NCBI GenBank assembly: GCA_963788655.1
Contig: CAWBHS010000076.1
Location: forward strand, 128,001-192,000
Direction: 5' to 3'
DNA length: 64,000 bases
Origin: an uncultured Verrucomicrobiae bacterium
Lineage (GTDB): Bacteria; Verrucomicrobiota; Verrucomicrobiia; Limisphaerales; JAFGQR01
Below the pieces are notes generated by a model. That model worked only from the letters and a program-made list of their open reading frames with translations. It was not told the origin of the DNA and ran no database searches. Position 1 is the first letter of the stretch. Each line of letters begins with the position of its first letter. Shown piece by piece: positions 1,246 to 61,990 of this stretch. A program made the translations under genes and the position numbers.

Positions 1246-2379
1246 ATGCCCAAAATTCGCGTACTCATCGCCGACGACGCCGTTGTCATTCGGCGGCTGG
1301 TGTCCGATTGCCTCGCCGAGGATCCGGACCTCGAGGTCGTTGGCACGGCGGCCAATGGCCAGATCGCGCTCGCGAAGATCGAGCAGGTCAATCCTGACCT
1401 TATTACTCTCGACATCGAAATGCCGGTGTTGGACGGGCTTCAGACGCTGGCCGCCATCCGGAAAACGCATCCGCGCCTGCCGGTGATCATGTTCAGCACG
1501 CTCACCGAACGTGGCGCGAGCGCCACGCTGGACGCACTTTCCGGTGGGGCCAGCGACTACGTGACCAAGCCGGCCAATGTGGGCAGCGTGGGTGCCGCCA
1601 TGCAGCGCGTCCGCGAGGAATTGATTCCCAAGATCAAGAGCCTGTGCCGCCCCATGCCGGTTCGGACGGCCAATGACGCCTCCCGTCCGAGCGCTCAGGT
1701 CCAACGGACCATTGAGTTCCGGACCGCGATCCTCGCTCGCGCTGAGATCCTGGCCGTCGGCGTTTCGACCGGCGGTCCGAACGCGCTCTCGGCGCTGCTT
1801 CCGGAATTGTCCCGCAACTTTCCGGTACCCATTGTGATCGTGCAACACATGCCGCCGTTGTTCACCCGGCTCCTGGCCGAACGCCTCGCGGCCGTGTCGG
1901 GTGTGCCCGCGCGCGAGGGCGAGGCGGGCGCCCGGCTGCGTCCCGGAGAAATCTGGGTGGCTCCGGGTGGTTTTCACATGGAGGTCGAAGGCAGCACGGA
2001 TGGCACTCGACTGCGCACCTTCGAGGGGCCGCCCGAGAACTCCTGCCGTCCGGCAGTCGATGTGCTGTTCCGCTCCGTGGCGCGAGTGTTCGGCCCCCGC
2101 GCCCTCGCGGTTGTGCTCACCGGCATGGGACAGGATGGTCTGCGAGGCTGCGAATGCATCCACGAGGCGGGCGGCCAGGTGTTGGTCCAGGACGAAGCCA
2201 GCAGCGTTGTTTGGGGCATGCCCGGGGCGGTGAGCCAAGCCGGTTTGGCCGACAAAGTTTTGCCCCTGGGCGAACTGGGATTTGAGATTAACCGTCGCGT
2301 CTGCACCGGCAAAACCCGGGGGCAAATCCCGTTGTCGGCCACGCTCCCTTTGCCGCCTAAACTGGCCCGAACGTCATGA
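1246..2379 (+). CDS. cheB: Chemotaxis methylesterase CheB (REC + esterase)
   Basis: REC plus [26 protein letters not shown] motifs. Confidence 0.95.
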
Positions 2380-3194
2380 GCCCCGCCGACTTCGACTACA
2401 TCCGCGGTTTCGTCCGCGACCAGGCGGCCATCGTCCTGGAACCGGGCAAGGAGTACCTCGTCGAGTCCCGGTTGCACACCCTGGCGCACAAAGAGGATTT
2501 TGGTTCGGTGGACGCCCTCATCAGCAAGCTCCGCTCCGAGCCGATGAACGGCCTCCATCGGAAGGTGGTGGACGCCATGACGACCAACGAGACGTCGTTC
2601 TTCCGCGACCTCCATCCCTTCGAGACCCTGCGGAAATCGGTGTTGCCGGAGTTGATGGCCCGGGGCGCGCAACAACGGCAGTTGCACTTTTGGTGTGGCG
2701 CCGCCTCGACCGGTCAGGAGCCTTACAGCATCCTGATGCTGATCGCGGAACACTTCCCCGAACTGCTCGCGTGGGACTTCAAGTTCATCGCCACGGACCT
2801 TTGTGGCGAAGTTCTGGCCCGCGCCCGGTCCGGCCGCTTCAACCAGCTCGAAGTCAACCGCGGCCTGCCCGCCACGCTGTTGGTGAAATACTTCGTCCGC
2901 CAGGGATCCGACTGGGAAATTCGAGAGGATTTTCGGCGGCGAGTGGACTTCCGCGAGATGAACCTGGCCAAAGAGTGGCCCTGGCTGCCGCCGCTGGATC
3001 TGGTGCTTCTTCGCAATGTCCTGATCTATTTCGATCTCGAAAGCAAGAAGGCCATTCTCGCCAAAACGCGACGCTTGCTGCGCCCGGGTGGATTTCTTCT
3101 TCTGGGAGGCACGGAAACCACCTTCAACGTGGATGACGAATTCGAGCGCGTTACGTTCGACAAGACGACGTGCTATCGGTTGAAGCAAACGTGA
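2376..3194 (+). CDS. cheR: Chemotaxis methyltransferase CheR
   Basis: [31 protein letters not shown] overlap with cheB. Confidence 0.95.
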
Positions 3195-3200
3195 AACGCC

Positions 3201-4052
3201 ATGCTTATGATCGACCTCGCCCGCCTTATCGTCCAAGCCAATGAGCTGGCCCCGCTCCCGGCCAGCGCAGTGCGTCTGGCTGAACTGGTCGGCAGCCCGG
3301 AGTGTCATTTGGATGACGTGGCGGAATTGATCGCGTTCGATCAGGCCCTCACCGTCAAACTGTTGCTGGCGGCCAATTCGGCGGCCAGCGCCAGTGCGGT
3401 GCCGGTGGGCGATGTGCGGGAAGCCGTGTCCCGGATGGGCACCGCGCAAGTGCTGGCCCTCATCGTCGCGGCCAGCGCCCGGCCCTTCCTGCAAACCCGT
3501 GTGCCCACCTACGGTCTCGGCGAAGGCGCCTTGTGGCGGCATTCCGTGGCGGCGGCCGCGGCGGCGGAAACCGCGCCGAGTTTCTGTCAGGTGGAAGTGC
3601 CACCGGAAACCTTCACCGCCGCCCTCCTCCATGATGTGGGCAAGCTGGTCATGGGCCGCTTCCTTAGTCCCGAAATCCTCGGCTTCATCCAGCGGGCCCA
3701 CGAAGTCGATCATCTGGGCCAGTTGGAAGCCGAGTCGCTGCTGCTCGACGTGCATCACGGCGAGCTCGGCGGCCTCATCGCCCAGCATTGGAAATTGCCG
3801 CCCCGGGTCGTGCTGGGCATCACTTACCACCACAACCCGGAGCAGGGGCTGGATGTCATTTGTGACCTCACGTATCTGGCCAACCAGGTCGCCAAACGCA
3901 TCGAAGCCGGCCTCGACGGCCGGAAGTTCGACCTCGCTTTCTCTCCCGCAGTCGCCGAACGCCTGGGCCTGACGCCAAAAATGCTTAACAACCTTTGCCC
4001 GATCGCGGCGTCGCGCTTCCTCCAGGTGAGTCGCCGTTACAACGCGGTTTGA
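3201..4052 (+). CDS. HDOD domain protein
   Basis: LAPLP..DQALTVKLLLAANSA, LWRHSVA, ALLHDVGK, HWKLP, YHH. Confidence 0.9.
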   Translation: MLMIDLARLIVQANELAPLPASAVRLAELVGSPECHLDDVAELIAFDQALTVKLLLAANSAASASAVPVGDVREAVSRMGTAQVLALIVAASARPFLQTRVPTYGLGEGALWRHSVAAAAAAETAPSFCQVEVPPETFTAALLHDVGKLVMGRFLSPEILGFIQRAHEVDHLGQLEAESLLLDVHHGELGGLIAQHWKLPPRVVLGITYHHNPEQGLDVICDLTYLANQVAKRIEAGLDGRKFDLAFSPAVAERLGLTPKMLNNLCPIAASRFLQVSRRYNAV

Positions 4053-4057
4053 AAGGT

Positions 4058-4549
4058 ATGAACGCCATCACTCCGAACCTCATCGACGACGTGTGCGACC
4101 TGCTGAGCCGCGGTGTCCGCGAAGTCTTCAACACCATGCTTGCTTTGGAGGCCGAGCCGGAGCCGCCACACGACTGGAGCGCTTCGGGCGAACCGCTCGT
4201 AGCCGGCTCCGTCGGATTTATCGGCGACGTCAAGGGCGTCGTCTATATCCAGGCGGCCGCCCCCTTCGCCCGCATCCTGGCCAACCGCATGTTGGGCTTG
4301 GCCGAGGCCGAGCTGGAGGGCGACGAGATGGTCAACGACGTTGTCGGTGAACTGAGCAATATGATCGTAGGTTCCGTGAAGTCCCGTTTGTGCGATCTCG
4401 GCGCCCCCTGCGTGCTGACCATTCCGTCCATCGTGCGCGGCCACAACTTCGAAATCGAGCCGGCCTGTTCGTCGGAGCGCCGCTCGCTGAGTTTCCGTTG
4501 CGGCACCGACCACATCGTGGTCGAACTCCTCATGAAACATTCCGCGTAG
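4058..4549 (+). CDS. cheX: CheX-family phosphatase
   Basis: GSVGFIG, DVVGELSNMIVG (ExxN), LTIPSIVRG; ATG at 4058 after GAAAGG. Confidence 0.9.
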   Translation: MNAITPNLIDDVCDLLSRGVREVFNTMLALEAEPEPPHDWSASGEPLVAGSVGFIGDVKGVVYIQAAAPFARILANRMLGLAEAELEGDEMVNDVVGELSNMIVGSVKSRLCDLGAPCVLTIPSIVRGHNFEIEPACSSERRSLSFRCGTDHIVVELLMKHSA

Positions 4550-26115: not shown

Positions 26116-26261
26116 GGGGAGCGCGCCCGCCCCGGGCGCGGGGGTTGGCGCCTCGCCAACCACGTTCGAGGATCCCAGGGATTCACTATTCAGTGACTGC
26201 TCAGTTGCGGGGCCAACCGGCGAGGCGCCGGTTGGCAGCGCCCGAGGCGGGCGCGCTCCCC
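26116..26261. repeat. REP/MITE-like palindromic element, family A
   Basis: Terminal inverted repeats GGGGAGCGCGCCCGCCCCGGGCGC / GCGCCCGAGGCGGGCGCGCTCCCC; related copies at 36213 and 57887. Confidence 0.8.
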
Positions 26262-36212: not shown

Positions 36213-36267
36213 TTCGAAAGTGGTTGGCGAGGCGCCAACCGCGGCGCCCGGGGCGGGCGCGCTCCCC
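36213..36267. repeat. REP-like family A, half element
   Basis: GGTTGGCGAGGCGCCAACC..GCGCCCGGGGCGGGCGCGCTCCCC, near reverse complement of 26116-26170. Confidence 0.75.
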
Positions 36268-55700: not shown

Positions 55701-56963
55701 GTGCAGCGGAAGGTTTCAAATCCTTGCTGGTTGACGAAGGTCAGCCGCCCCGTGAGGTCCATCTCGAAAATCGTTTGTGGTAACGACTCGGCCAACTCGC
55801 GGAACCGTTGTTCATTACGCCGGGCGTCGGTTACGTTGTGCAGCACGCAATGCGTGCACTGGAACCGTCCCTGATCGTCATACCCAATCCGGCCATCTGC
55901 CACAATTTTGACCACGGTGCCGTCCTGGCGTTGCAGGTCGAACTCGACCCCATGAACGGCGCCGGCCATTTTGAACTGGGCAAAGCGTTCGCGGAACAAT
56001 TCGACTTGTTCCGGGACCAGTAAATCCCCAAACCACCGGCCCAGCACTTCGGCGCGCGTGCAGCCCAGCATGTCCAGCCAGGCGGCATTCACTTCCCGGA
56101 GGCGACCCTCCGCGTCGAGCGATTGGTAGGCGACAGGTGCCCGCTCGAAGAGCTGTCGAGCCCGCTTCTCGCTGGCTCGCAGGCTGGCCGCGGTGCGCTC
56201 CTGCTGCTGGATGCGTTGGTGCAAGTGCCGACCGCCGCCAAGCAAACCAACCAGGCCCAGCACCCACAAGGCCCCATGCCCGAAGAGCAACGGAGGCAGA
56301 TGGGACCGGGCCGCGGCATAGTACGGCTCGAGTGGCACCGCCACACTGATTCCGCCCCACAGCGTTCCTGCCGGTTGGTTGCGCGTGACGTGGCATTGCC
56401 GGCAGCTTGCTTCGCCGACCATGGGCCGCATCAAACGCAGCACCGGATGGCGCTCCCGAAATTCGACGGAACTCACCTCGGTCGCTCCGGCCCCCAGGGC
56501 GTGAAGAGCATTTGTTTCCCATGGGTCGGCAGCATTTTCCGTAAGGGATGCCTTCAAGCTCGCGAGGTGCTCGTGTACGGCGAAGGGCGAGCGGGGCCGC
56601 TGAGGCATCCCGTTAATCGCGTCGTGCGGATCCATCAGCGTGAGCACTCGCCCGGACGGCGTCGTGATGTCGCGCTCCGGTAGATGCGCCAAATGGGGAT
56701 TGGGCGGAGTGTTCGGGAGTAACAGGCACATAATCGCCGCCATGCCGGCCCGCCCAGCGGCGATAATCCAGGTTTCTTTGGCAGTTGAAACGGGCTTGTT
56801 CCCGCGCCAGTTCCTGCCCCTGGCGTACCAGTCCTTGCCAGTTCAACCAGGTGAGCACGGCGACCAGTACCGTCCAACCGACCGCCAAAATTCCGATCAA
56901 CCACTTGAGCCGTTGAACGGTCGAAAGCGCTTTTAAAAATTGATGCATCCGTAAATGTACTCA
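52732..56963 (-). CDS. Large hybrid sensor kinase: heme-c (DUF3365-like) sensor, multiple PAS, kinase, REC; several frameshifts
   Basis: YRRW..HGG.YVP, PPNPHL, MRPM..CRQCH; PAS repeats; GVAHDLNNIL, PFFTTK..GTGLGL; LVDDE..TDMVMP..KPF; start 56948 or 56963. Confidence 0.85.
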
Positions 56964-57117
56964 TGACTTCCGTGAGATCACACAAACGCCTTCCTAACAA
57001 TTTTGTGCCGTGCCACCGGCGGGGGATTGTTTGGTTCCTTGGCGGGCACCCCGGTGGGGATTGCGTTCCCGAGATTGTTTCCCCGCGTTGGCTGCCGCGG
57101 GAATCGACCCCACTGGA

Positions 57118-57870
57118 CTACTTGGTGGTCGTGCCGGCTCCGATCAATGCCGCCGGTTCGCCATACAGTCTGCGGTTACTTTGATTGAACTCAAACTTCA
57201 GGTCCACTTCCAGGTCCTGCAACGTGATCAGTTTCCACTGCACCGGCAAAAACACCGGACGTCCGTCGCGTTGTTCCTTCGTCAATTCGTAGGCCAGCAA
57301 CAGGTGCAGCGCGTCGTGCGTCACCTTGGGAACGGCCGAAGGTGAATAATAGAAGGACCGTTGGGTCGTGTTCGCGGTGGTGGCGCTGTACGTTTTCAAT
57401 TCGAGGTAACACGGCACCGGTTCGGTGATCTCAATATCCGGATAGCCCACCGCTTGCGCCCGCCCTTCGGAGTTCACCGGCACTCGGGCACTGACGTTCA
57501 CATCGGCCAACGCGGTCCGGACAAATTTCTCGATGCGATTACCCGCCTCGTTCGCGCGCGCCGTGGCAATACCTTCCGCGCTTGCCCGCGAACCGGCGAG
57601 GGCGGCGGCTTGTTGCAATCGCCGGATCAATTGGACGTGCGCGGGATTGTTGGTGTCCAAATCGAGCAAACGAAAGCCGGTGGTCGCCCGGAGCACCGTC
57701 TTGAACGGCACCGCCCGGAGTGGCCGCTTCAAGCCGCGCAACGTCGCCTCCAAGGCGGCTGAATCTTCGGGGACCGGACGGTTCGATACCGCGGAGCTTG
57801 GTACCGATTCGGCCGCCCATCCCAGGCTGCTGATCACGCCGACCAACGCCAGACATCCAATGGTTTTCAT
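57118..57870 (-). CDS. PD-(D/E)xK (restriction-endonuclease-like) protein with putative signal peptide
   Basis: MKTIGCLALVGVISSLGWA|AES N-terminus; NEAGNRIE..GYPDIEI..YLELKTY. Confidence 0.6.
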   Translation of the reverse strand: MKTIGCLALVGVISSLGWAAESVPSSAVSNRPVPEDSAALEATLRGLKRPLRAVPFKTVLRATTGFRLLDLDTNNPAHVQLIRRLQQAAALAGSRASAEGIATARANEAGNRIEKFVRTALADVNVSARVPVNSEGRAQAVGYPDIEITEPVPCYLELKTYSATTANTTQRSFYYSPSAVPKVTHDALHLLLAYELTKEQRDGRPVFLPVQWKLITLQDLEVDLKFEFNQSNRRLYGEPAALIGAGTTTK

Positions 57871-57886
57871 AAAGTCGATTCCGGCG

Positions 57887-58003
57887 GGGGAGCACGGGCG
57901 CGCCGACCACGAATGGAGCGGGGCTCCCCAATTCGTGGCCGCCGTCCGCGTCCGAGTCAACGGCGAGGCGCCGTTGACAGCGCCCGAGGCGGGCGCGCTC
58001 CCC
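57887..58003. repeat. REP-like family A element between MTase and nuclease-like gene
   Basis: 57961-58003 is nearly identical to 26218-26261. Confidence 0.75.
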
Positions 58004-59289
58004 TACGATTTGCGAAACACCGTGATCCGGTTGGTGTTCGTGCCTTTGGCCATGTTATCGACGCCCCAACAATTCGCCGTCTTGGTAAACTCCTGATCGT
58101 TGATCACGATCAGCCGCGCTTCCAGTCCGGCGGCGAGGCCGCACGGGACGACCGCTTCCTCGAGCTTGGTTTCGCCGCCATGGACTTCACCGACCTCGAA
58201 GGCGACGTGTCCGCCGGGCTTCAAGACCCGGTGCAACTCGCGGAAGACTTTGGTCATTTCCGCCTGCCAATCTTCCAGCTTGCGCGGCACGGTCAGTTGC
58301 ACGCTTTCCGCGTCGATGCCAATGAACCAGGAACGCAACCAGTTGTCCGTGGCGTACTGCACCACGTTCAGAAACGGCGGTGATGTGACCACCAGATCGA
58401 CCGACGCGGACGGAATCTGCGGCGTTCGGTGCGCCGGCGCGGTCAGTAATTGCGCTTCATTCGCTACGCTCTGCACGTTGCGCCGCGCGGCGGGCGTGCA
58501 ATCGCCCAACAACTGTTTGGACTTTTTCAGAATCAACTTCGGCACATCGCGCGGCGGCGGCGTTTGTTGGCGGCGTTCATTGATCTTGCGTTGCGACTTG
58601 ATGGAAACCGCCTGGTTGGGCGGCATGGTATAGACTGAAAAGAATCCGTTCGAATGACCGGTCAGCCGGTTGATCGCCACCAGGCAAATCCATTCGTCCA
58701 GCGCATCCAGTGTTCCCGCCTGCCGGCGTTGCAGCAGGTAGTTCTTGAGCGCCGTGATCTGGGTGAGCGTCTCACGGTGATAAAACACCAGCAGGTCTTC
58801 CCACAGATCGGCGGTGGTGGTGAAATCGATTTGCTTGAGCCGCCCCGCCACCTCGTCGAGCGTTGGGGGATGCAGCCGCCCCCGCACAAACACCTGGCTT
58901 AACGGATTGATGTCACAACCCAACGGCACTCGTCCCAGCAACGCGGCCTCGATCGGCGTGGTTCCGCGGCCCATAAACGGATCATAGACCCGGTCGCCGG
59001 GTTGGGTAAGGCGCGCGATGAAAAAGCGCGGCAACTGCGGCTTGAAACAAGCGCGGTAGGACACTTCGTGCAGGCTGCTGGCCTGCCGCTGCCTGGCGGT
59101 CCAGAATTCGTTGACATACGTCTCCACCCGGACCGATTCGCCGGCAAAGGAATACGCCGGCGTCACCAACCGGCGCGTGGCCTTCCCGAATTCGTGAAAA
59201 CTCTCCAGGTCCTTGGCCAGCGAACGGGAGGGGCGTTTCGTGACCGGACGTTCAGCGTCCAAGCGCAGATCCAATAGTTCTTGTGTCAT
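58003..59289 (-). CDS. Amino (N4-C/N6-A) DNA methyltransferase
   Basis: YRACFKPQL, DPFMGRGTT (motif I), VVTSPPF (motif IV), RVLKPGG. Confidence 0.9.
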   Translation of the reverse strand: MTQELLDLRLDAERPVTKRPSRSLAKDLESFHEFGKATRRLVTPAYSFAGESVRVETYVNEFWTARQRQASSLHEVSYRACFKPQLPRFFIARLTQPGDRVYDPFMGRGTTPIEAALLGRVPLGCDINPLSQVFVRGRLHPPTLDEVAGRLKQIDFTTTADLWEDLLVFYHRETLTQITALKNYLLQRRQAGTLDALDEWICLVAINRLTGHSNGFFSVYTMPPNQAVSIKSQRKINERRQQTPPPRDVPKLILKKSKQLLGDCTPAARRNVQSVANEAQLLTAPAHRTPQIPSASVDLVVTSPPFLNVVQYATDNWLRSWFIGIDAESVQLTVPRKLEDWQAEMTKVFRELHRVLKPGGHVAFEVGEVHGGETKLEEAVVPCGLAAGLEARLIVINDQEFTKTANCWGVDNMAKGTNTNRITVFRKS

Positions 59290-59341
59290 ACAACTTCAAT
59301 CGGTTACTGCCATGCTCTGGTCCTTGGTTCGTGGCCATGGG

Positions 59342-59968
59342 TCATTCCCCATGATGGTGGTGTTCGAGGCGGGTGTGTTCATCGCCCAGCACGCGCGTCA
59401 AGTGCTCGCGCAATTGGAGCCGGGCCCGCAGCAGGCGCACTTTCACATTGGCTTCGCTGAGCCCCAGGGCTTCGGCGGTTTCCTTCACCGAAAGCCCCTC
59501 GAGGTCGCGCAATAAAAATACCAGCCGATGCTTTTCGTCCAGTTGCTCAAAGGCCTCCTCGAGCAGCCGTTGAATTTCGTTCTGATGGACCAATTCCTCC
59601 GGCGATTGCCGCCAGTCCGCGATGTATTCAGGATGAGGGATCGTGTCGAAATTCTCCTGGGGTTCGGTGGCTGCCTCCAACGACACCGTCGGCAGCCCGC
59701 GGCGTTTGCGCAGGATCTTCAGCGCGGCATGCGTGGCAATCCGCAGCAGCCAGGTGGAAAAACTCGCTTCCCCGCGAAAGCCGTGGAGGTGCTCCAGGAG
59801 GCTGATGAACGTTTGCTGGGTGACATCCTCCGCATCCTGTTCCTGACGCAAAATCCGCATGGCCAGCGAATAGACCTTGCGCTCGTATCGCGTCGTCAGG
59901 GCTTCAAACGCCTCCAAGTCACCGGCCTTGGCCTGTTGGACCAATTCGGCGTCGCTCGGAGCATCCAT
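59342..59968 (-). CDS. ECF RNA polymerase sigma factor
   Basis: DAELV..GDLEAFEAL, DAEDVTQQTF, FSTWLLRIA, VFLLRDLEGLS..NVKVRLLRAR. Confidence 0.92.
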   Translation of the reverse strand: MDAPSDAELVQQAKAGDLEAFEALTTRYERKVYSLAMRILRQEQDAEDVTQQTFISLLEHLHGFRGEASFSTWLLRIATHAALKILRKRRGLPTVSLEAATEPQENFDTIPHPEYIADWRQSPEELVHQNEIQRLLEEAFEQLDEKHRLVFLLRDLEGLSVKETAEALGLSEANVKVRLLRARLQLREHLTRVLGDEHTRLEHHHHGE

Positions 59969-60142
59969 TGCGGAATCGTTCACGGGCGGATGTTTAGCAG
60001 AGGTTGCGGCGCGGGTAAAACGAAACCGGAAGTTAAAATCCGAAGGCCGAAGGCCGGAGTTTGGATTTCGGGCTTCGACTTCTGCACGCCGGACCCCCGG
60101 CTTGACCTGCCGCGGTGTCCTCTCCAAAGTCCTCACCGGCTC

Positions 60143-61990
60143 ATGGACAACGTTCCGGCAGCAATCAGTTTAGTGCTCGTGCTCGGCATGGCCGCCCAAT
60201 GGTTGGCATGGCGGGCCAAGCTGCCGTCCATTCTGTTGCTCCTGACCTTCGGCTTCCTGGCGGGCCGCGTGTTCCATCCTGACAAATTGATCGGGCAGGA
60301 TTTGTTGTTTCCTTTGGTTTCACTCGCCGTGGCCACCATCCTCTTGGAAGGTGGACTCAGCCTCAGCTTCCGGGAAATCCGCGAGACGCGCCGGGCTGTC
60401 CTGCGATTGTGTACGGTGGGCGTGGCCATTGCCTGGGGCTTGACCATGGTGGCGGCTCGTTTCCTGGTGGACATGACGTGGTCCATCGCCGCGTTGTTGG
60501 GCGCCATTCTGGTCGTCACCGGGCCGACGGTTATCGGGCCGTTGTTGCGCCAGATCAAACCCATACGCAGCGTGGGCGCGGTGGCCAAGTGGGAAGGCAT
60601 TGTCGTGGATCCCCTCGGCGCCGTGCTCGCGGTGCTGGTGTTTCAAGCCGTCATGGCGCAAAGCCGAACGCACGCCTTCACCGGACTGGGGTGGTCGTTG
60701 CTCAAACTCATTCTGGTGGGGGGTCTGGGTGGATTCCTGGTGGCCAAAGGTTTGGAAGTCATTTTCAAACGGCACCTCATTCCGGACTTCCTTCACAGCC
60801 CCACGTTGCTGGCCGTGAGTCTGGCGGCGTACACCGTTTCGAACGAGGTGCAATCGGAAATGGGTTTGTTTACCGTGACGATCCTGGGGATTGCCCTGGC
60901 CAACCAGAACAACGTATCGCTCGAACACATCGTCGAGTTCAAAGAAACCCTGCGCGTGCTGCTGATCTCGTGTTTGTTCATCATCCTGGCGGCACGGATT
61001 GAACTCGGTGAAGTCACGCGCCTCGGCCTGCGCAGTCTCTGGTTTTTGCTGGCGTTGATATTCGTAGTGCGGCCCGCCAGTGTGTGGCTTAGCACGTATG
61101 GCTCGGGCTTGGGGTGGAAACAGCGACTGTATCTCTGCTTTCTGGCGCCACGCGGCATCGTGGCGGCGGCGGTGACCTCGGTGTTTGCAATTGAACTGAT
61201 CGAGGCCGCAGAACGCTACTCGTTGCCCGCCGCCCTGGTGGCCGACGCGGCCAAACTGGTGCCGCTGACGTTTGTGGTGATCATTGGCACGGTGGCCTTC
61301 TACGGTTTGCTGGCGGGGCCGCTGGCGCGACGTTTGAAGCTGGCGGCGGCCAATCCGCAAGGTATCCTGTTCGTTGGCGCCCGGCCGTGGGTAATCGAAG
61401 TGGCCAAATGCCTGCGTGAGGCCGGGATTGAAGTGCTGCTGGTGGACACGAGTCCGGAAATCGTGGCCCGCGCCCGCATGGCCAATTTGCCGGCCTTGCA
61501 CGCCAATATCTTGAGCCGCTTTGTCAGCGAGGAATTGGAACTGTTCGGCATTGGGCGATTGCTGGCCGTGACCTCCAATTTCGAAGTCAACACGCTGGCG
61601 TGCGGCGAATTCATCAGCCAGTTTGGCCGGCAGAACGTCTATCAACTCCAATTCAAGGACACCGCCAGCCAACGGCGGGATCTGTCGCATCGGATGCGGG
61701 GCCGGCCCTTGTTTGCCGAAAAATTTACGCACGATGTCATTGCCGAATGGATCGCCGGCGGCGCCGTGGTGAAGAAGACCCAGATCACCGACAAATACTC
61801 GTATGCTGATTTTCGTGCCCGCTATGGCGAAGTGTTGCCTTTGTTCGCCATTAGCGGTCCCGGGAAAGTCACCGTGTTCACCAGCGACTCGCCGGAGCCT
61901 GGAGCCGGCACCACGCTCATCAGCCTGATTCGCCAAATGCCGGAAGAAGCTCCGGTGTCCGAATCGGACGAGCGGAGCGCACGAGCCTGA
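60143..61990 (+). CDS. Cation:proton antiporter (CPA1/NhaP-like) with C-terminal TrkA-N-like domain
   Basis: QWLAWR.KLPSILLLL, VTGPTVI, WEGIVVDP, APRGIVAAA; about 12 TM segments; GILFVGA. Confidence 0.9.
   Translation: MDNVPAAISLVLVLGMAAQWLAWRAKLPSILLLLTFGFLAGRVFHPDKLIGQDLLFPLVSLAVATILLEGGLSLSFREIRETRRAVLRLCTVGVAIAWGLTMVAARFLVDMTWSIAALLGAILVVTGPTVIGPLLRQIKPIRSVGAVAKWEGIVVDPLGAVLAVLVFQAVMAQSRTHAFTGLGWSLLKLILVGGLGGFLVAKGLEVIFKRHLIPDFLHSPTLLAVSLAAYTVSNEVQSEMGLFTVTILGIALANQNNVSLEHIVEFKETLRVLLISCLFIILAARIELGEVTRLGLRSLWFLLALIFVVRPASVWLSTYGSGLGWKQRLYLCFLAPRGIVAAAVTSVFAIELIEAAERYSLPAALVADAAKLVPLTFVVIIGTVAFYGLLAGPLARRLKLAAANPQGILFVGARPWVIEVAKCLREAGIEVLLVDTSPEIVARARMANLPALHANILSRFVSEELELFGIGRLLAVTSNFEVNTLACGEFISQFGRQNVYQLQFKDTASQRRDLSHRMRGRPLFAEKFTHDVIAEWIAGGAVVKKTQITDKYSYADFRARYGEVLPLFAISGPGKVTVFTSDSPEPGAGTTLISLIRQMPEEAPVSESDERSARA

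Follow-up and report, generated by a model that had tools for sequence, protein, structure and literature searches.

A putative type II restriction-modification pair of Verrucomicrobiota with a predicted export signal on its MjaV-family endonuclease

The window analyzed here is a 64-kb stretch of DNA from an uncultured Verrucomicrobiae bacterium. Near its end it carries two adjacent genes, here named P0002 and P0001. Both are located on the minus strand, with a 250-aa ORF lying downstream of a methylase gene as the original prediction had described. The features of the locus were as follows.

58003..59289, minus strand: P0002, upstream gene of the pair, for a DNA amino-methyltransferase of 428 aa (Pfam and PADLOC matches)
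58957..58983, minus strand: methylase motif I, DPFMGRGTT, residues 103-111 (position in the translation)
58372..58386, minus strand: methylase motif IV, TSPPF, residues 302-306 (position in the translation)
57871..58002, no strand: structured spacer of 132 nt between both genes (RNA fold, inverted repeats)
57118..57870, minus strand: MjaV-family type II restriction endonuclease gene P0001 with N-terminal extension, 250 aa plus stop (PF27324.1, PADLOC)
57814..57870, minus strand: predicted Sec-type signal peptide, residues 1-19, with MK, a hydrophobic core and GWA before A (heuristic and conservation in the clade)
57766..57813, minus strand: Ser/Pro-rich linker, residues 20-35, without secondary structure (pLDDT 54-82)
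57121..57765, minus strand: nuclease core, residues 36-250 (AlphaFold, Foldseek)
57529..57552, minus strand: NEAGNRIE helix with E108 and E114 (conservation; model helix 106-123)
57394..57447, minus strand: GYPD145 to E157-L-K159, PD-(D/E)xK catalytic strands (conservation and model)

The first gene of the pair matched the Pfam family N6_N4_Mtase (PF01555) with 68.1 bits (cut-off 26.7; E 1.4e-18), and its residues 23-427 matched the PADLOC model MTase_II PDLC03325 with an E-value of 2.1e-181. These family matches show the predicted product of P0002 to be a cytoplasmic DNA amino-methyltransferase, and the motif I/IV enzyme proposed at the outset is borne out. Motif I aligned with positions 138-213 of the 221-position Pfam profile; the motif order in P0002, with I before IV, is opposite to that of the profile. 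The closest solved relatives by sequence were TTHA0409 (2zie, 2.4e-8) and a DNA cytosine-N4 methyltransferase (8s9n, 5e-8). An SPPF motif is typical of N4-cytosine enzymes. Together with the nearest solved relatives, the presence of this motif suggests N4-cytosine methylation as the modification made by P0002. Motif IV reads TSPPY in the archaeal partner methylase of locus L048, a canonical member of the endonuclease family described below.

The second gene, P0001, begins with an ATG at 57870 and ends with the stop codon 57118-57120; its frame is open upstream as far as a TTG at 57960. P0001 carries the precomputed family PF27324.1, as do all 120 relatives among the matches listed. In the Atlas this family is labelled as MjaV type II restriction enzyme family, and the label is present on 100% of the members of the three nearest clusters. 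Additionally, residues 40-237 matched the PADLOC model REase_II PDLC03511 (E 1.8e-22). Scans of P0001 against NCBIfam and against a Pfam set without PF27324 returned no family. In total, 412 relatives at E<=1e-3 were found in one protein collection and 509 in a second one, and the occurrence of a P0001-type protein is therefore far beyond chance. A tblastn search with P0001 against 72,556 plasmid records gave zero matches. The domain of P0001 is small.

Residue conservation was counted across 94 diverse members of the family. Invariant in all of them were R105, Y143, P144, K159, E227 and Y236, while D145 was present in 92, E108 in 90 and E114 in 88 members. At position 157 a glutamate was found in 84 and an aspartate in 8 members. 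The PD-(D/E)xK signature that had been read from the window protein, consisting of E114 in GNRIE (residues 110-114), GYPD (142-145) and ELK (157-159), is thus conserved across the family. In the AlphaFold model (pLDDT 91, pTM 0.82, most of the core at 96-98) D145 lies just ahead of strand 146-148, and E157 and K159 lie within strand 154-161.

A Foldseek search of the PDB with this model gave SfiI (2ezv) as the best match with 1.6e-4, followed by many EcoRV entries between 6e-4 and 2e-3. All nine matches with E<=0.001 were type II restriction enzymes, namely SfiI and EcoRV. The EcoRV-type layout of the original prediction agrees with this result, even though the TM-scores of the model against solved restriction enzymes were low (0.3-0.4). 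The SfiI, EcoRV, BglI and HincII branch, which provided the best structural matches among solved enzymes, shares with P0001 the helix glutamate, the PD at the start of a strand and the ExK on the next strand. At the level of sequence no solved chain was matched: searches of the solved structures with P0001 and with a 94-member profile gave nothing significant, the best hit being an unrelated barrel at E 0.073. A symmetric homodimer was supported in silico for P0001 (ipSAE 0.77, best control 0.00; runs agreeing in at least 97% of contacts; partner pLDDT at least 87). Of 30 proteins solved as one-chain pairs 20 reached this ipSAE mark, compared to one of 23 solved as single chains; these counts hold only roughly here, since our own alignment was used. 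The target of a P0001 homodimer may be a short palindrome. To our knowledge, the enzymes of the EcoRV branch have no signal peptide.

Taken together, the family matches show P0001 to be a putative MjaV-family, EcoRV-like type II endonuclease of the PD-(D/E)xK type. The founding enzyme MjaV cuts at GTAC. The MjaV system of Methanocaldococcus jannaschii (R.MjaV, MJ1500, and M.MjaV) is the namesake of PF27324, and P0001 belongs to the same nuclease family; the connection was made through the family label and shared relatives and not by direct comparison with the MjaV sequence. Canonical archaeal member L048 had at least 120 close relatives, and among the matches listed none was named MjaV; full names were either 'hypothetical protein' or 'Uncharacterized protein', with a few UniRef names beginning with 'Restricti...'. 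The catalytic residues are the same in P0001 and the MjaV family, and the partner methylases carry SPPF or SPPY as motif IV. The order of methylase and then nuclease is likewise common to the window pair and the canonical relatives, with overlapping genes in L048. However, canonical members of about 220 aa lack a hydrophobic N-terminus, whereas P0001 adds a predicted signal peptide and a linker. MjaV itself is described as an active restriction enzyme in a passage of PMC2615612, and M.MjaV as making m4C at GTAC in a passage of PMC11033074. Within the window, GTAC was mildly under-represented (67 observed against 95.7 expected, ratio 0.70). Since AGCT, TGCA and CTAG were depleted as much or more, this is uninformative on the cleavage site of P0001.

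The spacer of 132 nt between both genes contains inverted repeats and folds as RNA with -81.5 kcal/mol (z -4.0; none of 200 shuffles was as good). A short REP-like repeat forms its methylase-proximal part of about 43 nt (57961-58002), and copies with compensatory stem changes were found at 26218-26260, 26117-26139 (inverted) and 36244-36266. Four copies are thus present in 64 kb, and the element is a short, GC-rich, hairpin-forming intergenic repeat as expected of the REP type. The REP element that was said to separate the two genes is hence supported by recurrence and strong folding but not by a known family, as an Rfam scan of 56500-60500, spacer and repeat included, matched none. The spacer was not found in the related loci that were searched for it.

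Gene neighbourhoods were compared in 75 genome loci, 34 of which belong to the Verrucomicrobiota clade of P0001 and 41 to other groups. In 26 of the 34 clade loci a P0002-type methylase gene directly preceded the nuclease gene in the same orientation, with 60-72% identity over full-length matches and higher values over short fragments at contig edges. Among the other 41 loci a related methylase frame was present in 35, mostly just upstream, and two more were recognized by Pfam. The linkage to this methylase family thus extends well beyond the window, and because the methylase-then-nuclease order is conserved, the fallback of the original prediction, a repurposed nuclease fold standing beside an orphan methylase by chance, was rejected. 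A screen for a conserved third partner gene at the loci found none, and the flanks of the window shared no synteny with the 75 loci. Some loci deviate in detail: the nuclease of L034 lacks the YPD segment, and the methylase frames of L019 and L027, the latter a nanopore assembly, look frameshifted.

Six clade loci carried the nuclease with no methylase in the DNA around the locus. All 14 conserved residues that were checked are present in these six solitary nucleases, and among three of them dN/dS was 0.11-0.13, compared to 0.09-0.19 for methylase-linked genes. Judged by these measures, the solitary genes are intact and under purifying selection. Their neighbours are housekeeping genes, for instance hemC/hemA, rml genes and uvrA. 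A methylase may be encoded elsewhere in these six genomes.

The N-terminus distinguishes the clade from the canonical members of the family. In P0001 it reads MKTIGCLALVGVISSLGWA, followed after the predicted cleavage site by AES and a Ser/Pro-rich stretch up to about residue 35, in line with the signal-like peptide and linker noted earlier. Our signal-peptide heuristic is home-made and looks for a basic residue, an uncharged hydrophobic run and a small-x-small site. For P0001 it returned K2, an uncharged run of 18 residues with a mean hydropathy of 3.05, and the site G17-W18-A19 before A20. Mean pLDDT was low in the first three blocks of the model (residues 1-30: 49, 54 and 64). The heuristic was passed by the window protein and by 31 of the 34 clade loci, with weak passes for L007 and L019. 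In contrast, none passed among the 35 loci with an assignable start that came from archaea or other phyla. A similar picture was obtained from the collected proteins: at 53% identity or above, 116 of 131 had an extension that was hydrophobic and 18 aa or longer, whereas 104 of the 137 more distant ones had no extension. The linker varies in length and sequence among the homologs. Twin arginines were found in three of 35 clade N-termini and a lipobox in none. Outside the clade, further groups with a predicted export signal were those of P0127, P0196 and P0247 as well as P0145; P0199 of Rubellicoccus peritrichatus, which represents an Opitutales-type clade with such a signal, is located on a 5.8-Mb contig.

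From this pattern we infer that P0001 and its Verrucomicrobiota clade carry a predicted Sec-type signal peptide. The usual state of the MjaV family, cytoplasmic and without targeting sequence, would accordingly not apply to the window protein and 31 of the 34 clade loci. The conserved export signal suggests that P0001 works outside the cell membrane and not in the cell interior. Of the envelope-located or secreted nuclease that had been proposed, the conserved signal-like N-terminus stands; the support as a whole is partial and consists of sequence features and our own heuristic. In our estimation the pair is probably, though by no means certainly, a type II restriction-modification system with an exported endonuclease.

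The same evidence for export would also fit a nuclease that has lost its role in defence and degrades DNA from the environment, either within the periplasm or extracellularly, to obtain food or to turn over biofilm, with the methylase kept purely as an insurance against folding before export. The six clade loci with an intact, selected nuclease among housekeeping neighbours and without a methylase speak for such a function. So does a subset of eight loci that have a stable housekeeping setting in common, with trmD-rplS on the upstream side and a plsY-like gene on the downstream side; this would be expected of a gene long established at its site and not of a mobile defence island. Nevertheless we consider this unlikely. 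A methylase of the same lineage is kept in 26 of 34 loci, and a transporter or second nuclease was never a conserved neighbour. Furthermore, family-wide conserved residues other than the catalytic ones are the same in the clade with the predicted export signal, which argues that site-specific recognition was kept, and a site-specific cutter would be poorly suited to digest DNA to nucleotides.

A second alternative concerns the fate of the hydrophobic run, which might remain uncleaved and tether the nuclease to the inner membrane with the catalytic domain facing the periplasm. The flexible linker of 15-40 residues behind the run resembles that of tethered proteins, the h-regions are fairly long, as seen from the 18 uncharged residues of the window protein, and in some distant relatives (P0128, P0129 and P0258) the N-terminal region is longer and contains two or more hydrophobic runs. 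Against an anchor, 30 of the 31 clade loci passing the heuristic have a small-x-small site behind the run, the exception being the weak pass L007. The run itself varies freely in sequence, and the segment after the predicted cleavage site, which carries a TN motif, is conserved as protein and resembles a mature N-terminus. A membrane anchor therefore appears quite improbable.

An ordinary cytoplasmic restriction enzyme, with the extension being a mis-called start or a leader without function, is very improbable in view of the start codons. No in-frame ATG, GTG or TTG was present between positions 26 and 55 in 15 of 35 clade genes, and an internal start codon at any one alignment column was shared by at most five of the 35. 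It is true that the window gene offers in-frame TTG codons at positions 40, 44 and 47, that high-GC genomes often have long open frames ahead of true starts, that most loci retain the methylase and that the characterised relatives known to us are all cytoplasmic. However, although the sequence of the upstream frame is not conserved, a basic residue, a hydrophobic run and a small-x-small site are invariably specified by it: in 26 aligned homologs and 31 of 34 loci the N-termini are unalignable yet uniformly hydrophobic. The region past the cleavage site is conserved as protein, as mentioned above, and in relatives outside the clade the protein has a clear start some 10 residues ahead of the core.

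A weapon against neighbouring bacteria, with methylation as self-immunity, is scarcely credible: secreted PD-(D/E)xK DNase toxins of polymorphic toxin systems, such as the T6SS effector PoNe (PMC6688995), do exist and leave the cytoplasm of the producer, but such toxins are domains of larger effectors with dedicated secretion systems and protein immunity partners, whereas P0001 is a single domain with a bare predicted Sec signal and a methylase partner, the sole longer form among proteins of 439-2000 aa was P0391, the frameshift-fused methylase-nuclease of L027, and neither a delivery domain nor a secretion-system gene nor an immunity protein was among the conserved neighbours.

For the preferred reading, a restriction-modification pair with an exported endonuclease, the following course can be proposed. 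Because of the predicted Sec-type signal peptide and the flexible linker, P0001 would cross the inner membrane unfolded and would fold in the periplasm or beyond. There it could cut unmethylated double-stranded DNA prior to passage of the inner membrane, the substrates including DNA from pilus-driven uptake and free DNA of the surroundings. DNA of the own cell and its kin would be marked by the methylase, which would also protect the chromosome from nuclease that folds before export. Periplasmic restriction of double-stranded DNA is our leading idea for the role of the pair.

Several points do not fit smoothly. Retention of the methylase in most loci implies continued access of the nuclease to the chromosome, and this would be odd under full export. 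For phage DNA, which normally enters by injection through a channel, we know of no route that leads to exposure in the periplasm. No competence genes were found in the 64-kb window.

A precedent for the place of action exists in the periplasmic or extracellular non-specific DNases of Gram-negative bacteria (endonuclease I, EndA or Dns type), which are exported by Sec and encounter double-stranded DNA in the periplasm on its way into the cell. These DNases differ from P0001 in fold and family, and P0001 matched no Pfam or NCBIfam model of this type; they are not site-specific and have no partner methylase. As stated in a passage of PMC10287943, the uptake machinery brings double-stranded DNA to the periplasm and one strand then enters the cytoplasm. 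Since transforming DNA reaches the cytoplasm single-stranded, cytoplasmic restriction enzymes would be unable to act at the periplasmic entry stage.

A wider proposal, which we put forward tentatively and regard as doubtful, would be that Verrucomicrobiota restrict outside the cytoplasm, with a site-specific, methylation-sensitive endonuclease patrolling the periplasm and cutting foreign double-stranded DNA before it passes the inner membrane. The export signal would have changed state at least three times in the family. Having lost contact with the chromosome, the nuclease would in some lineages have persisted after its linked methylase was gone.

In the literature that was searched, no phrase for a secreted, extracellular, exported or periplasmic restriction endonuclease or restriction enzyme was found, and broader terms gave nothing relevant. 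An immunogold study of the 1980s reportedly placed the EcoRI endonuclease near or in the periplasm. Restriction enzymes are generally regarded as guards of the cytoplasm, with methylation and gene regulation as the only checks on the harm they can do to the host. If true, export throughout a clade within a type II family that is otherwise ordinary would add physical separation from the chromosome as a second control, as well as a new place of action. It could explain how nuclease genes persist without a linked methylase, and it would bear on the handling of incoming and environmental DNA by bacteria with large periplasms. Furthermore, it may offer a natural route for producing toxic restriction enzymes by secretion.

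The two genes form a type II restriction-modification system of the MjaV family that is located on the chromosome. A predicted Sec-type signal peptide on the nuclease is the unusual, clade-wide feature of the pair. The relevant features within the window were:

58003-59289, minus strand, methylase gene (P0002, 428 aa), the upstream gene of the pair
57118-57870, minus strand, nuclease gene (P0001, 250 aa; ATG at 57870, stop codon at 57118-57120)
59342-60133, minus strand, ECF sigma factor gene
57961-58002, repeat copy immediately 3' of the P0002 stop codon
26218-26260, repeat copy
26117-26139, repeat copy (inverted)
36244-36266, repeat copy

Both genes are separated by a spacer of 132 nt, and the motifs quoted in the original prediction were all found where it had placed them in P0001 and P0002. 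The GC3 of the pair (0.74-0.76) was the same as that of the neighbour genes. Chemotaxis and flagellar genes, two-component systems, a Na+/H+ exchanger and a DUF1501 gene are also present in the window, and none of the 75 genome-assembly loci that encode P0001 relatives had the same flanks. The region from 1 to 51400 is rich in chemotaxis and motility genes, with at least six methyl-accepting chemotaxis protein genes, two CheR, two CheB, CheD, a CheW-receiver fusion, a CheA-like kinase, flagellin and FliD.

The repeat is a short GC-rich element of two hairpins (core GGCGAGGCGCC ... GCGCCCGrGGCGGGCGCGCTCCCC) with at least four copies in the window, and its first stem carries compensatory changes from copy to copy. 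The copy following the methylase stop codon may influence how strongly the two genes are expressed relative to each other. Such a spacer was absent from the related loci compared; in at least one of these (L048) the methylase and nuclease genes overlap.

By sequence, P0001 matched neither Pfam nor NCBIfam in the copies used, nor any PDB entry. The precomputed family PF27324.1, named 'MjaV' and described as a type II restriction enzyme family in the Atlas, was assigned to P0001 and to all of the best 120 relatives listed in the protein collection. In addition, the PADLOC REase_II model PDLC03511 matched residues 40-237 (E 1.8e-22). MjaV itself (MJ1500) has restriction activity (PMC2615612), and M.MjaV forms m4C at GTAC (PMC11033074).

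Conservation was counted over 94 diverse family members. R105, Y143, P144, Y155, K159, E227 and Y236 were found in all of them, D145 in 92, E108 in 90 and E114 in 88, while position 157 was E in 84 and D in 8. In the AlphaFold model built from this alignment (pLDDT 91, pTM 0.82) a helix holds E108 and E114, D145 opens a strand and E157-x-K159 lies in the next strand, so that the modelled layout is that of PD-(D/E)xK enzymes. This agrees with the original prediction of a restriction-endonuclease-like protein, as does a Foldseek search of the model against the PDB: restriction endonucleases were matched, with SfiI at the top (1.6e-4), many EcoRV entries next and then BglI, MvaI, HincII and SwaI, at TM-scores of just 0.3-0.4. 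Two copies of residues 36-250 were predicted together in three runs along with three controls, giving ipSAE values of 0.80, 0.77 and 0.77 (best control 0.00), contacts agreeing to at least 97% and a pLDDT of at least 87. Among proteins of solved structure, 20 of 30 one-chain pairs and 1 of 23 single chains reach the ipSAE mark, counts that apply just roughly here because an own alignment was used. The prediction supports a symmetric homodimer, as support and not as proof of binding.

P0002 scored 68.1 bits against Pfam N6_N4_Mtase (cut-off 26.7) and matched the PADLOC type II methyltransferase model PDLC03325 end to end (E 2.1e-181). Its motif I (DPFMGRGTT, 103-111) precedes motif IV (TSPPF, 302-306); the Pfam profile has the two the other way round. 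An SPPF/SPPY motif is typical of N4-cytosine methyltransferases. The closest solved relatives by sequence were a Thermus modification methylase (2zie) and a DNA cytosine-N4 methyltransferase (8s9n), followed by M.MboIIA and M.PvuII.

The 75 loci were separated into the clade of the window (L001-L034, 53-66% identity) and an outside set (L035-L075, 34-49%) from many other phyla and archaea. In most loci of the clade the nuclease shows both features noted in the original prediction, the methylase neighbour and the signal-like N-terminus: a P0002-type methylase lies upstream in 26 of 34 loci, on the same strand, and a signal-like N-terminus is found in 31 of 34. These methylases share 60-72% identity over full-length matches and more over short edge fragments; four are cut by contig ends and two (L019, L027) appear frameshifted. 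In L027, which comes from a nanopore-derived assembly, methylase and nuclease read as a single protein (P0391, 670 aa). About 40 residues short of its end the methylase changes frame, and the fusion is therefore probably an indel error. In L034 (5001-5576) the segment with the YPD catalytic motif is absent (alignment gap, 197-aa core) next to an intact methylase; this nuclease may be inactivated.

Eight clade loci have no intact P0002-type methylase. L006 carries a different, conventionally ordered N6_N4 methylase, adjacent and divergent. L001 retains only remnants (the first 121 and last 24 residues, 1319-4445) around a 2.7 kb insert with another N6_N4 methylase (1822-2829, minus), an unknown 236-aa ORF and a PIN-domain gene; the exported nuclease gene downstream is still intact. 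No methylase was present in the locus DNA examined of the other six (L008, L014, L018, L023, L029, L033), with upstream DNA of just 1049 bp in L008 and 348 bp in L014. Their neighbours are hemC/hemA, rml genes, uvrA, an OmpA-family gene and an AIR-synthase-like gene. All 14 conserved residues checked were kept in each of the eight loci, and dN/dS was 0.11-0.13 among L008, L018 and L029, compared to 0.09-0.19 for methylase-linked genes. The L033 gene (4590-5729, 380 aa) encodes a signal-like N-terminus and about 120 extra residues ahead of the nuclease core, with uvrA downstream as in L014. Outside the clade, 35 of 41 loci contained a related methylase frame, mostly just upstream (on the opposite strand in L075). 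Pfam added a methylase at two more, and the remaining four are without upstream sequence.

The N-terminus of P0001 reads MKTIGCLALVGVISSLGWA, followed after the putative cleavage site by AES and a Ser/Pro-rich stretch up to about residue 35; residues 1-30 are unstructured and of low confidence in the model. A heuristic applied to the frames 5' of the conserved core looked for a start codon and a basic residue, then for 8 or more uncharged residues (mean hydropathy 1.7 or higher) and a small-x-small site. It was passed by the window and by 31 of 34 clade loci (L007 and L019 weakly). L012, L014 and L032 failed, showing by eye a hydrophobic run and an AxA-like end without a clean start. In the outside set a start could be assigned for 35 loci, of which none passed; their proteins begin about 10 residues ahead of the core, in a polar helix of the EEYIKQLE type. 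The other six outside loci are partial. Among the collected proteins of at least 53% identity, 116 of 131 had a hydrophobic extension 18 aa or more in length, 4 a non-hydrophobic one and 11, which may be truncated gene calls, none. Below 53%, 104 of 137 lacked an extension, 28 had a hydrophobic and 5 a non-hydrophobic one.

The rival reading as an ordinary cytoplasmic enzyme whose start was mis-called is unlikely, since an in-frame ATG, GTG or TTG at positions 26-55 is absent from 15 of 35 clade genes and no alignment column holds a possible start codon in more than 5 of the 35. The P0001 frame is open for 30 codons further 5', as far as a TTG in the structured spacer (57960). The likelier start is the ATG at 57870, because it yields the kind of short basic n-region that is usual in the clade. 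The hydrophobic segments are mutually unalignable and the segment right after the putative cleavage site is conserved, which matches signal-peptide behaviour. A twin arginine in 3 and a lipobox in none of the 35 N-termini point to Sec and signal peptidase I. We infer that P0001 is exported and cleaved; a membrane-tethered form is a rival explanation for the same N-terminus.

A quick maximum-likelihood tree was calculated from 128 core sequences (the window, 62 near-complete-match loci and, picked by hand from the collected proteins, 20 signal-bearing and 45 signal-less representatives; partial loci and P0194 omitted), with the signal state of L007, L012, L014 and L032 assigned by eye. The window's clade (38 rows, support 99) is signal-bearing throughout, and its sister is a signal-less pair of L035 (Ignavibacteria MAG) and the collected relative P0123 (support 97). 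Four changes of signal state are needed, at least three of them forced by well-supported branches. A second exported clade has two named members that are likewise Verrucomicrobiota, one from Rubellicoccus peritrichatus and one from an Opitutales MAG. Eight assemblies titled 'uncultured Bifidobacterium sp.' or 'Bifidobacteriaceae bacterium' (L004, L009, L013, L015, L017, L021, L022, L024) look like mislabelled bins; their nuclease genes nest among Verrucomicrobiota and their methylases are 60-72% identical to P0002.

Phrases that call a restriction endonuclease or enzyme secreted, extracellular, exported or periplasmic were absent from the literature searched, which lay mostly outside subscription journals, and broader searches returned nothing relevant. 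An older immunolocalisation claim reportedly exists for EcoRI.

During Gram-negative uptake, double-stranded DNA first reaches the periplasm, and a single strand then passes into the cytoplasm (PMC10287943). The most likely job of the exported nuclease would be to cut unmethylated double-stranded DNA in the periplasm. A scavenging nuclease is a rival explanation, and an inter-bacterial toxin a further one; no third conserved neighbour gene was found around the loci. That most loci have kept the methylase suggests that methylation may still separate own from foreign DNA, or that unexported enzyme may still endanger the chromosome. The persistence of solitary nuclease genes under selection suggests in turn that export lowers the risk of the nuclease to the chromosome, with an unlinked methylase as a possible alternative.
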